A stretch of 64,000 nt of DNA from a virus (IMGVR_UViG_3300020159_002019:45291-109290), one strand, 5' to 3'. Positions 33,256-52,544 are shown, counted from the stretch's first letter. The notes: a model not told the origin generated them from the sequence alone. Translations and numbers: made by a program.

Positions 33256-34113
33256 ATGGCAAAAATAGAAACATTAAAAGCAAAATTCCCTAATATAACC
33301 GAACAAACATTTATTCGTTTATTTGAGGGTGACAAGACATCTACTAAAAAGTATGCTGAATTTTTACTTTCCGCTTGGAATAGAAAAGGGACAAATTATG
33401 GTGGTTTAAGGGGTGTTGATGACTATATTAAATTGGTTGAGAATTTTGAGAAATTAACCCCTTATATTGATAATAAGGATATATACTCTTATGGAGATAT
33501 TCAATCAATAGTTGGTGTTGTTAAAATAGCTGAAGCCGAAAAAAATGAAAAATCTTTTGATAAAGATGAACACATTTCAGTTATTGAAGAAACTGAAGAT
33601 TATATCTTTTTGATACCTAAAACACACGTTGGTTCATTAAAATATGGTTCTAATACTAAATGGTGCACAGCGGCATCAACAAGTCCTGGAACTTTTAAAT
33701 CATATATTGATAGAGGTTTTTTAGCTTATTTAGTTGATAAGAAAAATAAAAAGACGAATAATCAAAATAAATTGGCTTTTTATTTTACAAATAAAGAAAA
33801 CTTACTTACACAAGTAATCCAAATCTTTAATCAATTAGATTCACTTGTAAATGAAAACCAAGTAATACAGAGTGGTTGGGATATTATGTTATTGAGTAAT
33901 CTTATAACTAAATTGAGGGTTTTCTTATTTGAGTTTAAGGAGAAAGAAAAAGTTAGGGTTGAAGTATCTAAAACAATTCAACAATTGAATCAAATCAATT
34001 ACGATAACTTCTTTAATGCTTTAAATACGTTAAAGATAAATCCTGAGAATGTTGAAGAATTGAAAAACGCTTTAGGGTTAGTTAAAACTTCAATGAAAAA
34101 AATCAAAGTATGA
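33256..34113 (+). CDS. Hypothetical protein, YG-x-x-(T/S)KWC repeat family
   Basis: GSLKYGSNTKWCTA motif shared with three other ORFs. Confidence 0.6.
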   Translation: MAKIETLKAKFPNITEQTFIRLFEGDKTSTKKYAEFLLSAWNRKGTNYGGLRGVDDYIKLVENFEKLTPYIDNKDIYSYGDIQSIVGVVKIAEAEKNEKSFDKDEHISVIEETEDYIFLIPKTHVGSLKYGSNTKWCTAASTSPGTFKSYIDRGFLAYLVDKKNKKTNNQNKLAFYFTNKENLLTQVIQIFNQLDSLVNENQVIQSGWDIMLLSNLITKLRVFLFEFKEKEKVRVEVSKTIQQLNQINYDNFFNALNTLKINPENVEELKNALGLVKTSMKKIKV

Positions 34114-34460
34114 GGAGTGTAAAACAAATCAAAAAGTTAAGATATACTAATGATTGGGTGTCAAATGTTGATGATTCAAATATAACTTATCGTCTTTTTA
34201 CTTATAATGGTTTAACTTGGAATGTTATTTTAACTAACCGACAAGAATTAGGTGGTTGGACAATAAGGTTATGTAATAATGATGGTGATGAATTATACAT
34301 TTTTAATTCAGGTGTGAATAGAATGTCCATATCAATAAATGACGATTTAATTTACGAATTAGATGGTTGGTATTATGAAAATATAACTGAATTGAAGAAT
34401 AGGTTAGAAAACGATTTAATCGTATTATTAAGGAAATATGAGGAGTATATCAAAAATTAG
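34110..34460 (+). CDS. Hypothetical protein
   Basis: 116-aa ORF, ATGA-coupled. Confidence 0.5.
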   Translation: MRSVKQIKKLRYTNDWVSNVDDSNITYRLFTYNGLTWNVILTNRQELGGWTIRLCNNDGDELYIFNSGVNRMSISINDDLIYELDGWYYENITELKNRLENDLIVLLRKYEEYIKN

Positions 34461-34770
34461 GGTAAGTGTAAAACAAGATTTTCAAGAATGGTTGGAAAAA
34501 ACTACCATTAGTAGATGGATGCCAAGACATAGAATAATATGTAATGATGGGTTTTCTATGTCAGTTCAGGGTGGTGAGTTTACATATTCAAACCCAAGAC
34601 AATTTGGTAGTAGTTTTACTGAAATGGAGATTGGGTTTCCTTCTGAGTATGAAGAATTGATTAGTAGTTATTCTGACTCTAATGAATATACTCAAACTGT
34701 TTATCCATATGTCCCAGTAAGTTTAATTATTGAAGTGATTGAAAAACACGGAGGAATAAAAAAAGATTAG
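34438..34770 (+). CDS. Hypothetical phage protein
   Basis: CNDGFSMSVQ...EIGFPS...VYPYVP..IEKHGG. Confidence 0.6.
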   Translation: MRSISKIRVSVKQDFQEWLEKTTISRWMPRHRIICNDGFSMSVQGGEFTYSNPRQFGSSFTEMEIGFPSEYEELISSYSDSNEYTQTVYPYVPVSLIIEVIEKHGGIKKD

Positions 34771-48145: not shown

Positions 48146-48202
48146 ATGAGTAAAATTAAAATGTTGGTTACAACGATAGATGGCGCTGGTGTGGGTGCTT
48201 AA
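48146..48202 (+). pseudogene. Stranded N-terminal fragment of glycosyltransferase (MSKIKMLVTTIDGAGVGA*)
   Basis: Same peptide as 49234-49326 with different codons; stops at the insertion junction. Confidence 0.7.
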
Positions 48203-48965
48203 TATTTTTTATTTCATTTAATATAAAATCAATACCTTTTTCTTTGTAATCATACTCCCAAATCGTAATAACGGTAAATCCTTTACTCTCACCTAATATG
48301 GTTTTTTGTTTATCATATTCCCATAATTCTTTTGCCGTCATACCCTTTTTTTTGTTCATATAATCACTATTATATAATTTAGGGTTACAATGCCAGTAAT
48401 CACCATTGAACTCAATTAGAATGTTTTTATTGGGTATATGGAAATCAAATAATTTACCTTCAATGTTGAAGTTTAATTTTATATCGTTATAATTTTTTTT
48501 AAGTAGAGATAGTATTTCATTTTGTGTTTTTGATGTTGGCGAGTATTTTAATTTACCTAATTTATGTCTATTAGACATAACTTTCTTCATTTTTTCTCTG
48601 GTTTTTTCTAAATTACCACTATCCCAAGACTTTTTAAGACCTTCAGAAACTTTTTTTCTATTTTCAGGTTTATTCATAGCGTTAGCGTCACCACAACCCT
48701 TATTTTTTCTTGATTTTGATATTTTTTTTATTGACTCTTCATTGTGTTTTTTACCCGCAAATGGATTACCTGAACCTGTTTGTGATATTACTGTACATTT
48801 ATGACATTTTTTATTTTTCTTAGTAAAGGTTTTTATGTTTCGTATTAAATAATATTTGGCGTTTTTTTGATTACCATCTGTTGAATGTGTTATTTTATCA
48901 CCACAAATAGGGCAATTTCTATTAGCGTAATACCTACCATTTTCATATTTTATATCTATATCCAT
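48168..48965 (-). CDS. Putative homing endonuclease (Zn finger + NUMOD3 + Vsr/DUF559-like nuclease)
   Basis: CPIC/CHKC; GNPFAGKKHNEESIKKIS; FDFHIP..NILIEFNGDYWH; ITIWE. Confidence 0.8.
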   Translation of the reverse strand: MDIDIKYENGRYYANRNCPICGDKITHSTDGNQKNAKYYLIRNIKTFTKKNKKCHKCTVISQTGSGNPFAGKKHNEESIKKISKSRKNKGCGDANAMNKPENRKKVSEGLKKSWDSGNLEKTREKMKKVMSNRHKLGKLKYSPTSKTQNEILSLLKKNYNDIKLNFNIEGKLFDFHIPNKNILIEFNGDYWHCNPKLYNSDYMNKKKGMTAKELWEYDKQKTILGESKGFTVITIWEYDYKEKGIDFILNEIKNIKHPHQRHLSL

Positions 48966-49138
48966 TATATAATAAAATCTTCATTTATTTTATTGTTTTT
49001 TAATAAATCTCTATAAACTAAATGCTCAATATACTTAGATTTATTTTTATGTGATTCACCCATAATCTTATCTAATTCAGGATTTAAGGTTATACTTACT
49101 TTAACTTTCTTTTTTCCTTCTTCTATTTTATTTCTCAT
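48965..49138 (-). CDS. Ribbon-helix-helix-like small DNA-binding protein
   Basis: KVKVSITLNPEL...NKSKYIEHLV. Confidence 0.65.
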   Translation of the reverse strand: MRNKIEEGKKKVKVSITLNPELDKIMGESHKNKSKYIEHLVYRDLLKNNKINEDFII

Positions 49139-49233
49139 ATTATATAAATACACAAAAAAAATAAAAAACAAGATTTTTATAGTATTTTTTCATTAATGTT
49201 TATTTTTCTTACTACATTAGTTATATATGGTGT

Positions 49234-49326
49234 ATGAAAAATAACGAAATTACGGGAGAACAAAAATACAACCCTGGCAAGATCAAGATGTTGGTGACAA
49301 CTATTGATGGTGCTGGGGTTGGTTGA
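49234..49326 (+). CDS. Second N-terminal segment of glycosyltransferase (MKNNEITGEQKYNPGKIKMLVTTIDGAGVG*)
   Basis: Ends GGT-TGA, out of frame with the main ORF. Confidence 0.65.
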   Translation: MKNNEITGEQKYNPGKIKMLVTTIDGAGVG

Positions 49327-50486
49327 ATAAAGGTGCTTATAGAATGAGATGGCCTCACGTTCATCTACAAGAAATGTTTCAGGATGAAATACATATAGAT
49401 ATTATTGATATATCTGACTTTACAGATATTACAATATATAAAGATTATAATATTATATTCTGTCATAGAAGTTTAACTCCTGATATTGGAGCAACTCCTG
49501 AAATATATAAAAGATTAAAACAACAAAACCCTAATCAAATTATTATTGGTGATATTGACGATCATTGGTTGGTTGATCCATCACACGGATTATATCAAAT
49601 CATCAAGTTCCAACAAATAGATAAAAAGATTGTTGAGAATTTAAAAATATTTGATTATGTGACAACAACCAATTTATATTTCGCTTCTAAGATAAGGCAA
49701 TATAATAAGAATGTGGTAATATTCCCAAATGCTATTAATCCAAGAGATAGACAATTTATCCCTAATAGGGAAGAAAATGATAAGATTGGTATTGGTTATT
49801 TAGGTGGTTCATCACATTTAAAAGATTTACAATTATTGCATGGTGTGACGAATGTTCTATCAGGCGATAAGTCCGTTATGGATAAGATACAATTGGTTTT
49901 ATGTGGTTTTGATTTAAGGGGGACAAAAACAACCATAAATGCTCAAACTGGGGAACAAATGCAAGAACCGATTAAACCTCACGAAACTGTTTGGTATGAT
50001 TACGAAAAAATTGTAACGGATAATTATAATATTATTTCACCACAATATAAGAACTATTTAGATAGATTTACTCAAGGATCATTTGATGATAAGAATGAAC
50101 CGTATAGAAGAAGATGGACATTACCAATCAACAAATATGCTACAAACTATAACTACTTTGATATATCATTGGCTCCATTAGTAGAAACTGAGTTTAATAG
50201 GGTTAAATCGTCATTGAAGGTAATGGAAGCAGGTTTCCATAAGAAAGCTTTAATTGCGTCACATATTGAACCATATTCAGAAGATATTATTGATGGTAAG
50301 AATGGGTTTTTAATTGAACAAAAAAGAAGTCATAAAGATTGGCATAAAACAATTAAGAAATTGGTTAATAACCCTGAACAAATAAAAGATATGGGTGAAG
50401 CGTTATATGAAACCGTAAAGGAAAAATATAACTTAGATTTTGTATCAAAAAATAGGATGGAATTTTATAGGTCAGTAATAAAATGA
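49323..50486 (+). CDS. Glycosyltransferase (GT-B fold), main body
   Basis: GAYRMRWPH, DIDD, GYLGGSSHLKDL, DISLAPL...FNRVKSSLKVMEAG. Confidence 0.85.
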   Translation: MNKGAYRMRWPHVHLQEMFQDEIHIDIIDISDFTDITIYKDYNIIFCHRSLTPDIGATPEIYKRLKQQNPNQIIIGDIDDHWLVDPSHGLYQIIKFQQIDKKIVENLKIFDYVTTTNLYFASKIRQYNKNVVIFPNAINPRDRQFIPNREENDKIGIGYLGGSSHLKDLQLLHGVTNVLSGDKSVMDKIQLVLCGFDLRGTKTTINAQTGEQMQEPIKPHETVWYDYEKIVTDNYNIISPQYKNYLDRFTQGSFDDKNEPYRRRWTLPINKYATNYNYFDISLAPLVETEFNRVKSSLKVMEAGFHKKALIASHIEPYSEDIIDGKNGFLIEQKRSHKDWHKTIKKLVNNPEQIKDMGEALYETVKEKYNLDFVSKNRMEFYRSVIK

Positions 50487-50728
50487 GGACTATAAATCAA
50501 TACATTATTGAAAACAAACGGAAAGTTAAATTAAATTTAAGAACCGTTAATGTTAATGTTGGTGCTCGACCAATTAGAGCGATTTGGACACCTGAAATGG
50601 TTCAAGATATTTCTGCGTTTCATAATATAGATGCTGAGGCTGAATTATCTAGAATATTAAATGAAGAATTAAGTAGGAATATTGATTATCAAATTATTAG
50701 GAATTTTTTAAATAATGATTTACATTAA
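50483..50728 (+). CDS. Small protein resembling an internal fragment of T4 gp23-like major capsid protein
   Basis: ARPIRAIWTPEMVQDISAFHNIDAEAELSRILNEELSRNID. Confidence 0.7.
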   Translation: MRTINQYIIENKRKVKLNLRTVNVNVGARPIRAIWTPEMVQDISAFHNIDAEAELSRILNEELSRNIDYQIIRNFLNNDLH

Positions 50729-50982
50729 TGAGAACAATAAAACAATATAATATACAACGAAGGTTAAGAAATAACCTAAATAAGTGGGATGTCGTATTAG
50801 GAAATAGAGGTGGGGTTGATACCGGTTTGGTATTTGCTCCATATATACCAGTTCAATTAGATCCGGTAATGTTAGACAATCAAATAGTTGGTGTTAGTAG
50901 TAGATATGCGTCCGTTCAGGTAAATCCGAATAATTATGGTGTTATTAATATACCGAATGTAAATGGAAGGATATTTGTATGA
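50728..50982 (+). CDS. Small protein resembling the C-terminal fragment of gp23-like major capsid protein
   Basis: DTGLVFAPYIPVQL...GVSSRYA...NPNNYGVINI. Confidence 0.7.
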   Translation: MRTIKQYNIQRRLRNNLNKWDVVLGNRGGVDTGLVFAPYIPVQLDPVMLDNQIVGVSSRYASVQVNPNNYGVINIPNVNGRIFV

Positions 50983-51203
50983 GAAGTTTAAAAAATTTAA
51001 TAGGTAGGAAAAAACCTTTAATTGATTTAAGTTGGGATAGCGCCAATCTGACTATCGGTGATTTTTATCCTATAACTAATAATATTAGCAATAATATAAT
51101 TACAAATGGTGGGATTGTGTTTAATAATTTACCTATTAGTCCAATAGGATTAACAGAGGGTAGTGTGTGGAGAGATGGTGAAGGTATTTTAAGAATTGTT
51201 TGA
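50979..51203 (+). CDS. Small protein with fibre-like C-terminal motif
   Basis: NLPISPIGLTEGSVWRDGEGILRIV. Confidence 0.5.
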   Translation: MRSLKNLIGRKKPLIDLSWDSANLTIGDFYPITNNISNNIITNGGIVFNNLPISPIGLTEGSVWRDGEGILRIV

Positions 51204-51234
51204 TTTTATAGACATTTTTTACTACTATTAAGTA

Positions 51235-52251
51235 ATGACAAAAACATTAGTGATAGATGGTAATTATCTATTAAAAAGGGGAACTAAAGGCGCTAAAAAT
51301 ATTATCTTTAATGAAGATAAGATAGGTGGGTTATATCAGTTCATCATTACAATAAAGATGATGATGAATAAGATATTCCCTGATAAGGTAATTGTATTTT
51401 GGGATGGACCCAATTCCAAAGATTATAGAAGAACATTTTACCCTGAATACAAAATACAACGAGAGGAGTTAAACAATAAGATTGATAAAGATTATCAGTT
51501 TAACATTCAAAAAATTAAATCCCAATATTATTGTGAAGAACTATATTTAAGACAATTTGAAGATGAAGGATCTGAGGCTGATGATAGTATTGCTTATTAT
51601 TGTTTAAATACTCCAAATGAGTATAAGTATGTATATACAAATGACAGGGATATATTACAGACAATTAGTGAAAATACTGAAGTTTATTTAGCGGACAAAA
51701 GAGATTTTGTAAATAAAAAAAATTGGAGTAAGTATTTAGATTATCATTATAAAAATATATGTTTAGTAAAAGTTTTAACAGGTTGTAATTCGGATAACAT
51801 AGCAGGTGTTTATGGTATGGGTGAAGCAACATTGTTTAAGTTATTTCCTGAGTTAGTAAAAGAAGAAAAAACATTAGAATGGGTATTTGAAAAAGCAAAC
51901 CAATTATTACCTGAATCGAGAGGTAGGGATGCGTCAGTATTAAGAAATCTCATTAACGGAAAATCAAAACACGGAGTAATGGGTGAAAACCTATATATTA
52001 CAAATCAAAAGATTATTGATTTAAGCCAACCTTTGCTAACTGATAACGTAAAAGAGAGGATTGATGATGAATTAATAAATGGTGTATTAAACCCTGAAGG
52101 TAGGGATTATAAGGTATTAATGAAACAAATGATTAATGATGGTATCTATTCATATATGCCGAAATCAGATTCTGGGTTTATTGATTTTTTTAAGCCATTT
52201 TATATTATTATGGAAAAGGAAAAGAAATTATATAAGAAAGCAATATTATGA
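51235..52251 (+). CDS. 5'-3' exonuclease / flap endonuclease (PolI N-terminal / T4 RNase H-like)
   Basis: LVIDGN, FWDG, YPEYK, EADDSIA, TNDRDILQ, SDNIAGVYGMGEAT. Confidence 0.9.
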   Translation: MTKTLVIDGNYLLKRGTKGAKNIIFNEDKIGGLYQFIITIKMMMNKIFPDKVIVFWDGPNSKDYRRTFYPEYKIQREELNNKIDKDYQFNIQKIKSQYYCEELYLRQFEDEGSEADDSIAYYCLNTPNEYKYVYTNDRDILQTISENTEVYLADKRDFVNKKNWSKYLDYHYKNICLVKVLTGCNSDNIAGVYGMGEATLFKLFPELVKEEKTLEWVFEKANQLLPESRGRDASVLRNLINGKSKHGVMGENLYITNQKIIDLSQPLLTDNVKERIDDELINGVLNPEGRDYKVLMKQMINDGIYSYMPKSDSGFIDFFKPFYIIMEKEKKLYKKAIL

Positions 52252-52544
52252 GTAAAGAAAGAATTAATTTAAATTCGGAAGAACTAAGGGATTTATGGAA
52301 TGGTGTGTATCATAAAGGTAATACATATGAATTAAACGGTGAGGTATATGAACAAGTGGAAAAAATAGACACATCTAAATATTCAGATGGACCATCTTGG
52401 GATTATATAATCCAAAGAAAAGATGATGGTAAGTATTTTAAATTTAATGTTTGGGATGCTGGGGAACATAATGGGTATATTTTTGAAGATGAATATTTGG
52501 AAGAAGTGGAACAATATAAGAAAATAATTAATGAATATAAGTAA
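52248..52544 (+). CDS. Hypothetical protein
   Basis: 98-aa ORF coupled to neighbours. Confidence 0.55.
   Translation: MSKERINLNSEELRDLWNGVYHKGNTYELNGEVYEQVEKIDTSKYSDGPSWDYIIQRKDDGKYFKFNVWDAGEHNGYIFEDEYLEEVEQYKKIINEYK

Follow-up and report, generated by a model that had tools for sequence, protein, structure and literature searches.

What use would a very large bacteriophage have for a row of miniature genes, each of which opens with nearly the same few residues and then continues with a short excerpt of a virion protein? This question is raised by a locus on the virus contig IMGVR_UViG_3300020159_002019, of which the window analyzed here, a stretch of 64,000 nucleotides numbered from its first letter, represents bases 45291-109290 of the 109,290 bp available in IMG/VR. 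The contig belongs to a T4-superfamily jumbo phage, has a guanine-plus-cytosine (G+C) content of 29.3%, and is rated by CheckV as 34% complete, so that the whole genome would be roughly 320 kb. Three open reading frames (ORFs) follow one another on its plus strand, namely mini-gene B (ORF1, 50483..50728, 81 residues), mini-gene C (ORF2, 50728..50982, 84 residues), and mini-gene 3 (ORF3 or mini3, 50979..51203, 74 residues). All three are intact and, as an earlier sequence-only reading had held, each has its own coupled start, with ATGA at the junction of the upstream glycosyltransferase gene and B (the TGA stop overlapping the ATG of B), TAATG between B and C, and ATGA between C and ORF3. B and C carry excerpts of gp23, the major protein of the capsid, ORF3 carries the end motif of a giant fibre-like protein, and the answer tentatively favored in this article is that the three genes encode microproteins mimicking contact surfaces of the virion.

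The relationship to the capsid can be followed in most detail for B, which is composed of the tag MRTINQY, an (I)xE motif at residues 8-10, a basic linker, and a gp23 module (residues 14-75, 50522..50707) comprising a strand, the short acidic P-domain helix, and the spine helix, equivalent to T4 gp23 249-310. B matches the Pfam family PF07068 (Gp23) at E 3.4e-14 with 53.5 bits (cut-off 24.4) over profile positions 131-194 of 376, matches PHROG 138 (major head protein) at E 4e-13, and aligns with residues 260-307 of T4 gp23 in solved heads (PDB 6uzc/5vf3). A separate hidden Markov model (HMM) of gp23, built from 119 full-length gp23s of the fetched loci and also used for mapping residues onto T4, scores B at 69 bits and gives no score for mini3. 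The gp23 segment that the sequence-only reading had recognized in this ORF is therefore well founded. Within the B family, the tag columns M1, I4, Y7, and K12 are invariant, and the most conserved columns are those of the acidic helix, in which the invariant D50, E52, and E54 correspond to T4 D285, D287, and E289. The gene recurs in 46 protein clusters at the 90% level, most of them with a form of 79-81 residues, at 54-95% identity. In GenBank phages, the best matches of ORF1, among those listed, all fall within full-length capsid or vertex genes, and the returns of a metagenome scan were dominated by full-length gp23 genes, with no mini-gene relatives among them. A weak Gp23 match in another jumbo genome (G004) proved poor on inspection and was rejected.

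Mini-gene C is built in the same manner, with the tag MRTIKQY, a basic linker, and an excerpt of the gp23 C-terminus, the module of which (residues 18-78, 50779..50961) comprises P-domain strands and the P-loop and lies within T4 gp23 430-521. Its resemblance to the gp23 C-terminus, likewise proposed from the sequence, amounts to 37 bits over 61 residues of the gp23 HMM (positions 504-570), with a Pfam Gp23 score of 18 bits that is below threshold (profile positions 310-353 of 376). In the C ortholog of one related locus, L175, a stretch of 33 residues is identical to the C-terminal region of a full gp23, and across the five orthologs I4 and Y7 are invariant. A prediction of the complex of B with C, run without controls, returned a score of 0.00 and gives no verdict either way. 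Both mini-genes cover the gp23 profile only in part, at 81 and 84 residues versus 450-680 for full gp23s, and judging from this coverage they are not complete HK97-type subunits. Compared with T4 gp23 itself (PF07068; PDB 6uzc, 5vf3, 7vs5), ORF1 and ORF2 are homologous to its spine and short acidic helices (residues 249-310) and to its P-loop and P-domain strands (about 430-490), but they are excerpts of 60-67 residues that lack the A-domain, the insertion domain, the N-arm, and the E-loop, and because these parts are missing they cannot form a subunit of the HK97 fold.

Two further tagged ORFs, located 70 kb upstream and outside the window, are also gp23 excerpts, forming a tandem pair on the minus strand (G000:C1:25419-24807 = L166:6811-7420). 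One of them, piece A (84 residues, G000:C1:25061-24807, minus strand), scores 25.4 bits against Pfam Gp23, above the cut-off, and represents roughly residues 93-127 of T4 gp23, which correspond to the Gol region, where gp23 is most conserved; it occurs in 26 clusters and ends in an invariant tail, TFPFWKIKVIF, that is not of gp23 origin. Its neighbor, of 123 residues, combines a delta-domain start with a degenerate copy of the B motif. When the excerpts are placed on the T4 capsid, with residue numbers of T4 mutations taken from PMC9546572, they coincide with sites of head-length mutations. Three groups of head-length mutations have been described, consisting of A268V, A275T, D285V, and D287V/N next to the short acidic helix of the P-domain with its intercapsomer charge contacts, of T457A, R460C, and G461S in the P-loop, which is located at the quasi-threefold axis, and of A66D, A94V, and G97S in the scaffold-contacting N-terminal region, while gp31-bypass sites lie at 292, 306, and 307 in the spine helix and at 455 in the P-domain sheet (PMC9546572). 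The three head-length groups fall inside B, C, and A, respectively; B covers bypass sites 292, 306, and 307, and C covers A455V. By this mapping, the mini-proteins keep the junction and scaffold-contact elements of gp23 and omit its A-domain and insertion domain.

The excerpts also appear to be renewed from the full-length gene (g23). In L175, C is a mosaic whose flanks are about 90% identical to the C of the window and whose central portion of ~100 nucleotides is 92% identical to the full-length g23 of the L008/L010 type versus 56% to the C of the window, and the short B of the same locus contains 97 nucleotides at 95% identity to this type of g23. Such patches indicate recent gene conversion from full g23. 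The L008/L010-type g23 is found within a T4-like head module. Its product is a gp23 of 620 residues with a Pfam Gp23 match, and the module further contains an ORF resembling a protease and, in the position of the scaffold gene, an acidic ORF, these two being identified solely by sequence and gene order. Contigs carrying this module (G012 type) are 29.2% G+C and imply a genome of the same size, and the four samples that yielded four relatives of the mini-gene locus also contain copies of the module; on the evidence of shared samples, G+C, and nucleotide patches, the G012-type g23 is probably the lineage's own capsid gene. For the comparison with the full capsid gene of the phage, suggested along with the original claim, patches 92-95% identical to the probable cognate g23 are available, and no full gp23 was found on this contig. 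Across lineages, B modules are often closer to a local full gp23 than to other mini-genes and are not monophyletic, in a short alignment with weak support. Because the excerpts track what is probably their own g23 by gene conversion, they fit a recognizer of the phage's own capsid better than a weapon against unrelated phages.

ORF3 draws on another virion component. Following the tag MRSLKNL and a hypervariable middle rich in N, T, and I, it ends in an invariant C-terminal motif, a 25-residue hairpin (51126..51200, plus strand) with the pattern LPxSPIGLxEGxVWRDxxGxLRIV, which is common to the C-terminus of a 2025-residue fibre-like ORF on the same contig. The last 25 residues of the two are 48% identical (E 1.5e-4, tblastn within the contig), so the fibre-like ending assigned to ORF3 in the sequence-only reading is upheld. 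The long ORF (G000:C1:29952-36029, L195:153-6227) lies outside the window and downstream of a gp13-like adaptor; it is repeat-rich and has no family match, and its repeats are common to fibre ORFs of 611 and 1230 residues in G012. For mini3 itself there is no family match in Pfam or PHROG, nor any match among GenBank phages. When 1.84 billion representative proteins were searched with a profile of ten mini3 orthologs, this yielded small MRSL-tagged homologs together with at least nine larger proteins, of 161-1029 residues, that bear the motif at their extreme C-terminus. In the AlphaFold2 (AF2) model of mini3, the motif has a predicted local distance difference test (pLDDT) score of 91-93 and forms a hairpin from strands 63-65 and 71-73, and the remainder is disordered; a Foldseek search of this model against the PDB returned nothing at E <= 0.001. 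A likeness to the foldon of T4 fibritin, seen by eye only, lies in the ~25-residue end of mini3 and of the 2025-residue fibre, with P-x-x-P, an aromatic residue, R/K, D-G/A, and a hydrophobic strand, and extends to the predicted hairpin and to the position of the long fibre gene near a gp13-like adaptor, as for T4 wac. The motif of mini3 may be a fibre end of the trimerization type, and motifs of this kind are natural for oligomerization.

What unites these bodies is the N-terminal tag. A start of the form MR[ST][ILV] is present in 8 of the 114 non-overlapping ORFs of the contig, compared with ~0.1 expected from composition, and the eight ORFs are all 74-148 residues long and situated in three clusters, which confirms the shared MR(T/S) start first noticed by eye, including that of the ORFs at 34110 and 34438. 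The consensus is M-R-(T/S)-(I/L)-(K/N)-x-(Y/L), followed by a basic linker. The B, C, A, and mini3 families have unrelated bodies, yet each has an unvarying hydrophobic residue at positions 4 and 7 (I4/Y7 in B, C, and A; L4/L7 in mini3). On ORF1 and ORF2 the tag is foreign, since the full gp23s of the group begin differently, with MGALLESG or MSSFLLKSG, and it is therefore not derived from the gp23 N-terminus. At the DNA level, ATGAGRA is invariant across the eight tagged ORFs of the contig, with two B orthologs in relatives deviating; paralogous tags differ at synonymous sites, which argues for conservation at the peptide level. The ORFs MRSVKQI (34110..34460, plus strand, 116 residues) and MRSISKI (34438..34770, plus strand, 110 residues) belong to no Pfam or PHROG family, overlap each other, and have acidic bodies with an isoelectric point of about 5 and no parent gene detected on the contig, and a 148-residue MRSIK ORF has as its sole Pfam match a weak, methyltransferase-like one (E 0.04), which lends no support to a terminase-like reading of it.

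Such a leader recalls the capsid targeting sequence (CTS) of T4, in which targeting is directed by positions 4 and 7 and processing involves positions 8 and 10 (PMC9026906), and which reads MKTYQEFIAE or MKTFKEF (Y4/F7) in ipII, ipIII, and ipI; the tag aligns with it in register. It is conceivable, if unlikely, that the mini-genes encode internal proteins of the T4 type, which the tag would load into the prohead core and which would be cleaved there and later injected, as T4 IPI-III are, the capsid-like body serving only as cargo or as a handle on the prohead. The invariant hydrophobics at residues 4 and 7 in every family (a pattern match only) would suit this, as would the small size, the basic N-terminal part, the ending of a cassette indel at the tag, and the (I/V/L/F)xE at residues 8-10 of the B family (IIE, VKE, VRE, FKE, or LKE), and in T-even phages the internal protein loci likewise combine diverse bodies with one leader (PMC3012670). 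However, the likeness is limited to 7-10 residues, C and ORF3 lack (I/V/L/F)xE and with it the E10 site, neither a prohead protease nor a scaffolding core was found on this 34%-complete contig, the 10 kb on either side of the protease contain no tagged ORF in eight relatives, and the small proteins between protease and scaffold in the probable cognate head module start with another leader, MKKIKLTE or MKIIITEE. A second shared leader, MK.IKLTE..L..I..R...E, was observed over the first ~22 residues only of a 105-residue ORF (G000:C1:27683-28000) and a 93-residue ORF (L200:1545-1826); it contains an LTE protease-type site, and the latter ORF is situated between the protease and the scaffold of that module.

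A locus that exchanges sequence with g23 might also have no protein function at all, its ORFs being recombination by-products or donor cassettes for g23 and their shared start a nucleotide signal for translational coupling or an operator. The attraction of mobile DNA to the locus (a homing endonuclease in the window and, in L170, an insertion resembling TnpB) and the exchange itself are in keeping with this, as are the invariance of ATGAGRA on the contig, though not in the two B orthologs of relatives, and a ratio of nonsynonymous to synonymous substitution rates (dN/dS) for C that rises to 0.5-0.9 in some pairs. The selection data as a whole conflict with it and leave it very improbable. B has a median dN/dS of 0.29, C of 0.52, and mini3 of 0.45, with 0.08 and 0.06 for the flanking RNase H and glycosyltransferase genes, and B stays at 0.16-0.3 at dS above 1. 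The mini-genes are intact in every relative compared at the DNA level, indels are in frame, motif columns are nearly invariant compared with variable linkers, tags of paralogs vary at synonymous sites, and dozens of protein clusters contain B or A as a small ORF. The sequence-only reading had staked its case on significant gp23 similarity and on the absence of neutral pseudogene decay; the Pfam and HMM scores provide the former, dN/dS shows purifying selection in place of the latter, and its functional capsid mimics consequently stand. The mini-genes are real accessory genes and not debris.

How the cassette is assembled was examined among relatives with RNase H 87-99% identical, between the same two flanking genes. 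B, C, and mini3 are present together in the window, L167, and L169, and L170 has the same set with the TnpB-like insertion after B. A short B accompanies mini3 in L173 and C plus mini3 in L175, a B-C fusion precedes mini3 in L174, and mini3 alone is found in L171, L172, L176, and L181, making it the sole member kept in all relatives. The indel that distinguishes loci with B and C has both ends on the ATGAGRA start of the tag. Elsewhere, B is fused to the end motif of mini3 (P0107), to a piece of C (P0025/L174), to unrelated N-terminal domains, and, in reversed order, to an A-type piece (P0049/P0050/P0070); these natural fusions of B with C, A, and mini3 suggest that the modules act together. 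The insertion in L170 is a 395-residue ORF (L170:3258-4445) lying exactly between intact B and C and resembling IS200/IS605-type TnpB in its N-terminal sequence. In another lineage, a different start, MI.K.IP.F.F, is combined with a basic KSRR tail.

Of the possible functions, the one favored, with a confidence that stays clearly short of even, is that the mini-genes encode interface-mimic microproteins acting on virion assembly, with the tag as their common handle. Each product has a two-part build, in which the shared N-terminal peptide and basic linker precede a brief copy of part of a virion protein. In ORF1 and ORF2 this part consists of capsomer-to-capsomer contact elements of the quasi-threefold junction, and in ORF3 of the terminal hairpin of the giant fibre, and each mini-protein would occupy the surface normally receiving that element, whether on gp23-type capsomers or on the trimerizing end of the fibre. 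Such occupancy would delay, tune, or block the assembly of lattice or fibre, in the phage itself or in closely related co-infecting phages. The tag would provide a common handle for targeting or timed removal and, at the DNA level, a joint at which cassettes are gained, lost, or fused.

The conserved nature of the excerpts also brings host immunity into consideration, and it is possible, although unlikely, that the mini-proteins are immune decoys or antagonists, made early and occupying host sensors of conserved capsid parts without activating them. In support of this, the genes are accessory, fast-evolving, and hyperplastic; the operon around them is made up of replication-type genes; the excerpts represent the best-conserved segments of gp23 and stay matched, through gene conversion, to the g23 that is probably the phage's own; and defenses that sense capsid protein are many, including Avs7/8/10 and Dsr1 (PMC13581612) and Lit/Gol (PMC3014915). 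The specific link to Lit through the Gol peptide, raised in the sequence-only reading, does not hold for ORF1-3, which leave the Gol-equivalent region uncovered; that region is present in piece A, elsewhere in the genome. On the other side, the binding of capsid epitopes normally activates such sensors, no precedent for a fragment decoy was found in the literature, and ORF3, the constant member, mimics an oligomerization-type fibre end and not a known immune-sensed fold, which leans towards assembly.

Several points nevertheless weigh against the assembly interpretation. Binding by the mini-proteins and any effect on assembly are inferred from homology and mapping. Conservation in gp23 is strongest at the interface residues themselves, and a decoy for sensors would therefore show the same pattern. 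The lineage's own head module lies off this contig, and the cognate g23 is likewise inferred. B and C are dispensable, as four relatives hold mini3 only, and the mini-genes are located among replication genes, away from the head genes. In addition, the AF2 model of B alone is a low-confidence fold (pLDDT 55).

The surroundings of the cassette are those of a replication/modification-type operon and not of a head module, in agreement with the sequence-only reading. The glycosyltransferase gene (GT1/GT4-like, 49323..50486, plus strand; Pfam Glycos_transf_1 E 8.5e-8, PHROG 7162 E 7e-47) is always directly upstream, as seen in the seven related loci reaching so far (L167 + L169-L175), and directly downstream is an RNase H / 5'-3' exonuclease gene (51235..52251, plus strand; Pfam 5_3_exonuc_N E 7.7e-20), a flank that is 87-99% identical across 15 related loci. 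Beyond it are ORFs resembling dUTPase and a DnaB-type helicase, named by sequence resemblance alone, without a family-library scan. Upstream, the region 48168-49326 contains a homing-endonuclease-like ORF (265 residues, minus strand; PHROG 3339/559) and a 68-residue ORF, flanked by a Dam-type methyltransferase and the glycosyltransferase, and relative L169 is without them. The first ~20 codons of the glycosyltransferase (KIKMLVTTIDGAGVG) are in another frame in the window (ORF 49234-49326), so either the 5' end is frame-shifted or translation restarts at the internal MRWPH used in other relatives. A scan for the late promoter TATAAATA was uninformative in a genome of 29% G+C. Metatranscriptome contigs are sparse, lying on the glycosyltransferase and on RNase H, with one running from the end of ORF3 into RNase H; none lies on B or C, the RNA being too sparse to show expression or silence. 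Sequencing runs containing at least 70% of the sampled words of this stretch came from five studies, dated 2018-2025 and mostly labeled freshwater or lake water, and the occurrence of DNA near-identical to positions 49300-52300 of the window in lake and freshwater metagenomes of several independent studies indicates that the lineage is widespread in fresh water.

Considered more broadly, these genes may represent an undescribed class in huge T4-like phages, a proposition that falls clearly short of an even chance. The class would consist of modular mimic microproteins whose excerpts, taken from contact elements of the phage's own virion proteins, are re-copied from the complete genes by gene conversion, with lineage-specific tags and shuffling of cassettes, and its members would be either dominant-negative regulators or weapons of assembly or antagonists of the receptors by which a host senses the core proteome of phages. 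No paper on such phage mini-genes for virion-protein excerpts was found in the literature. If the mini-proteins do bind at the junctions between capsomers or at the ends of fibres, they would represent the first regulators of virion assembly of the microprotein type to be encoded by a phage and, as their segments are those whose mutation alters T4 head length, a natural handle on the sizing of very large capsids. If they instead blunt capsid-sensing immunity, they would exemplify a new counter-defense principle, the mimicry of a sensed protein by its fragment. Under either interpretation, a recurrent unannotated gene type in huge-phage genomes is accounted for, and an ongoing exchange of sequence between a core structural gene and accessory mini-genes is shown.

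Known systems offer partial parallels. The T-even internal proteins IPI, IPII, and IPIII are likewise small, unrelated bodies behind one short leader, encoded by variable loci outside the head module, with the leader at recombination joints; the bodies in the present case, however, are excerpts of virion proteins and not anti-restriction folds, the cleavage site is missing in two of three, and packaging is putative. Eukaryotic microProteins are dominant-negative proteins that consist only of an interaction domain. The mini-genes resemble them in that one interaction element has been taken out of a larger protein to be expressed by itself, and they differ in setting, since no report was found of the concept for phage virion proteins. 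Small proteins that redirect capsid size are encoded by satellites, including Sid of P4, CpmB of the Staphylococcus aureus pathogenicity islands (SaPI), and Ccm of the capsid-forming phage-inducible chromosomal islands (cf-PICI), the last of which is itself a homolog of capsid protein. Like these, the mini-proteins would be small accessory proteins acting on a capsid lattice, that of the helper in the satellite systems and, as proposed, that of the virion here; whereas the satellite proteins are directed against a helper, the excerpts described in this article are encoded by the phage and track what is probably its own g23.

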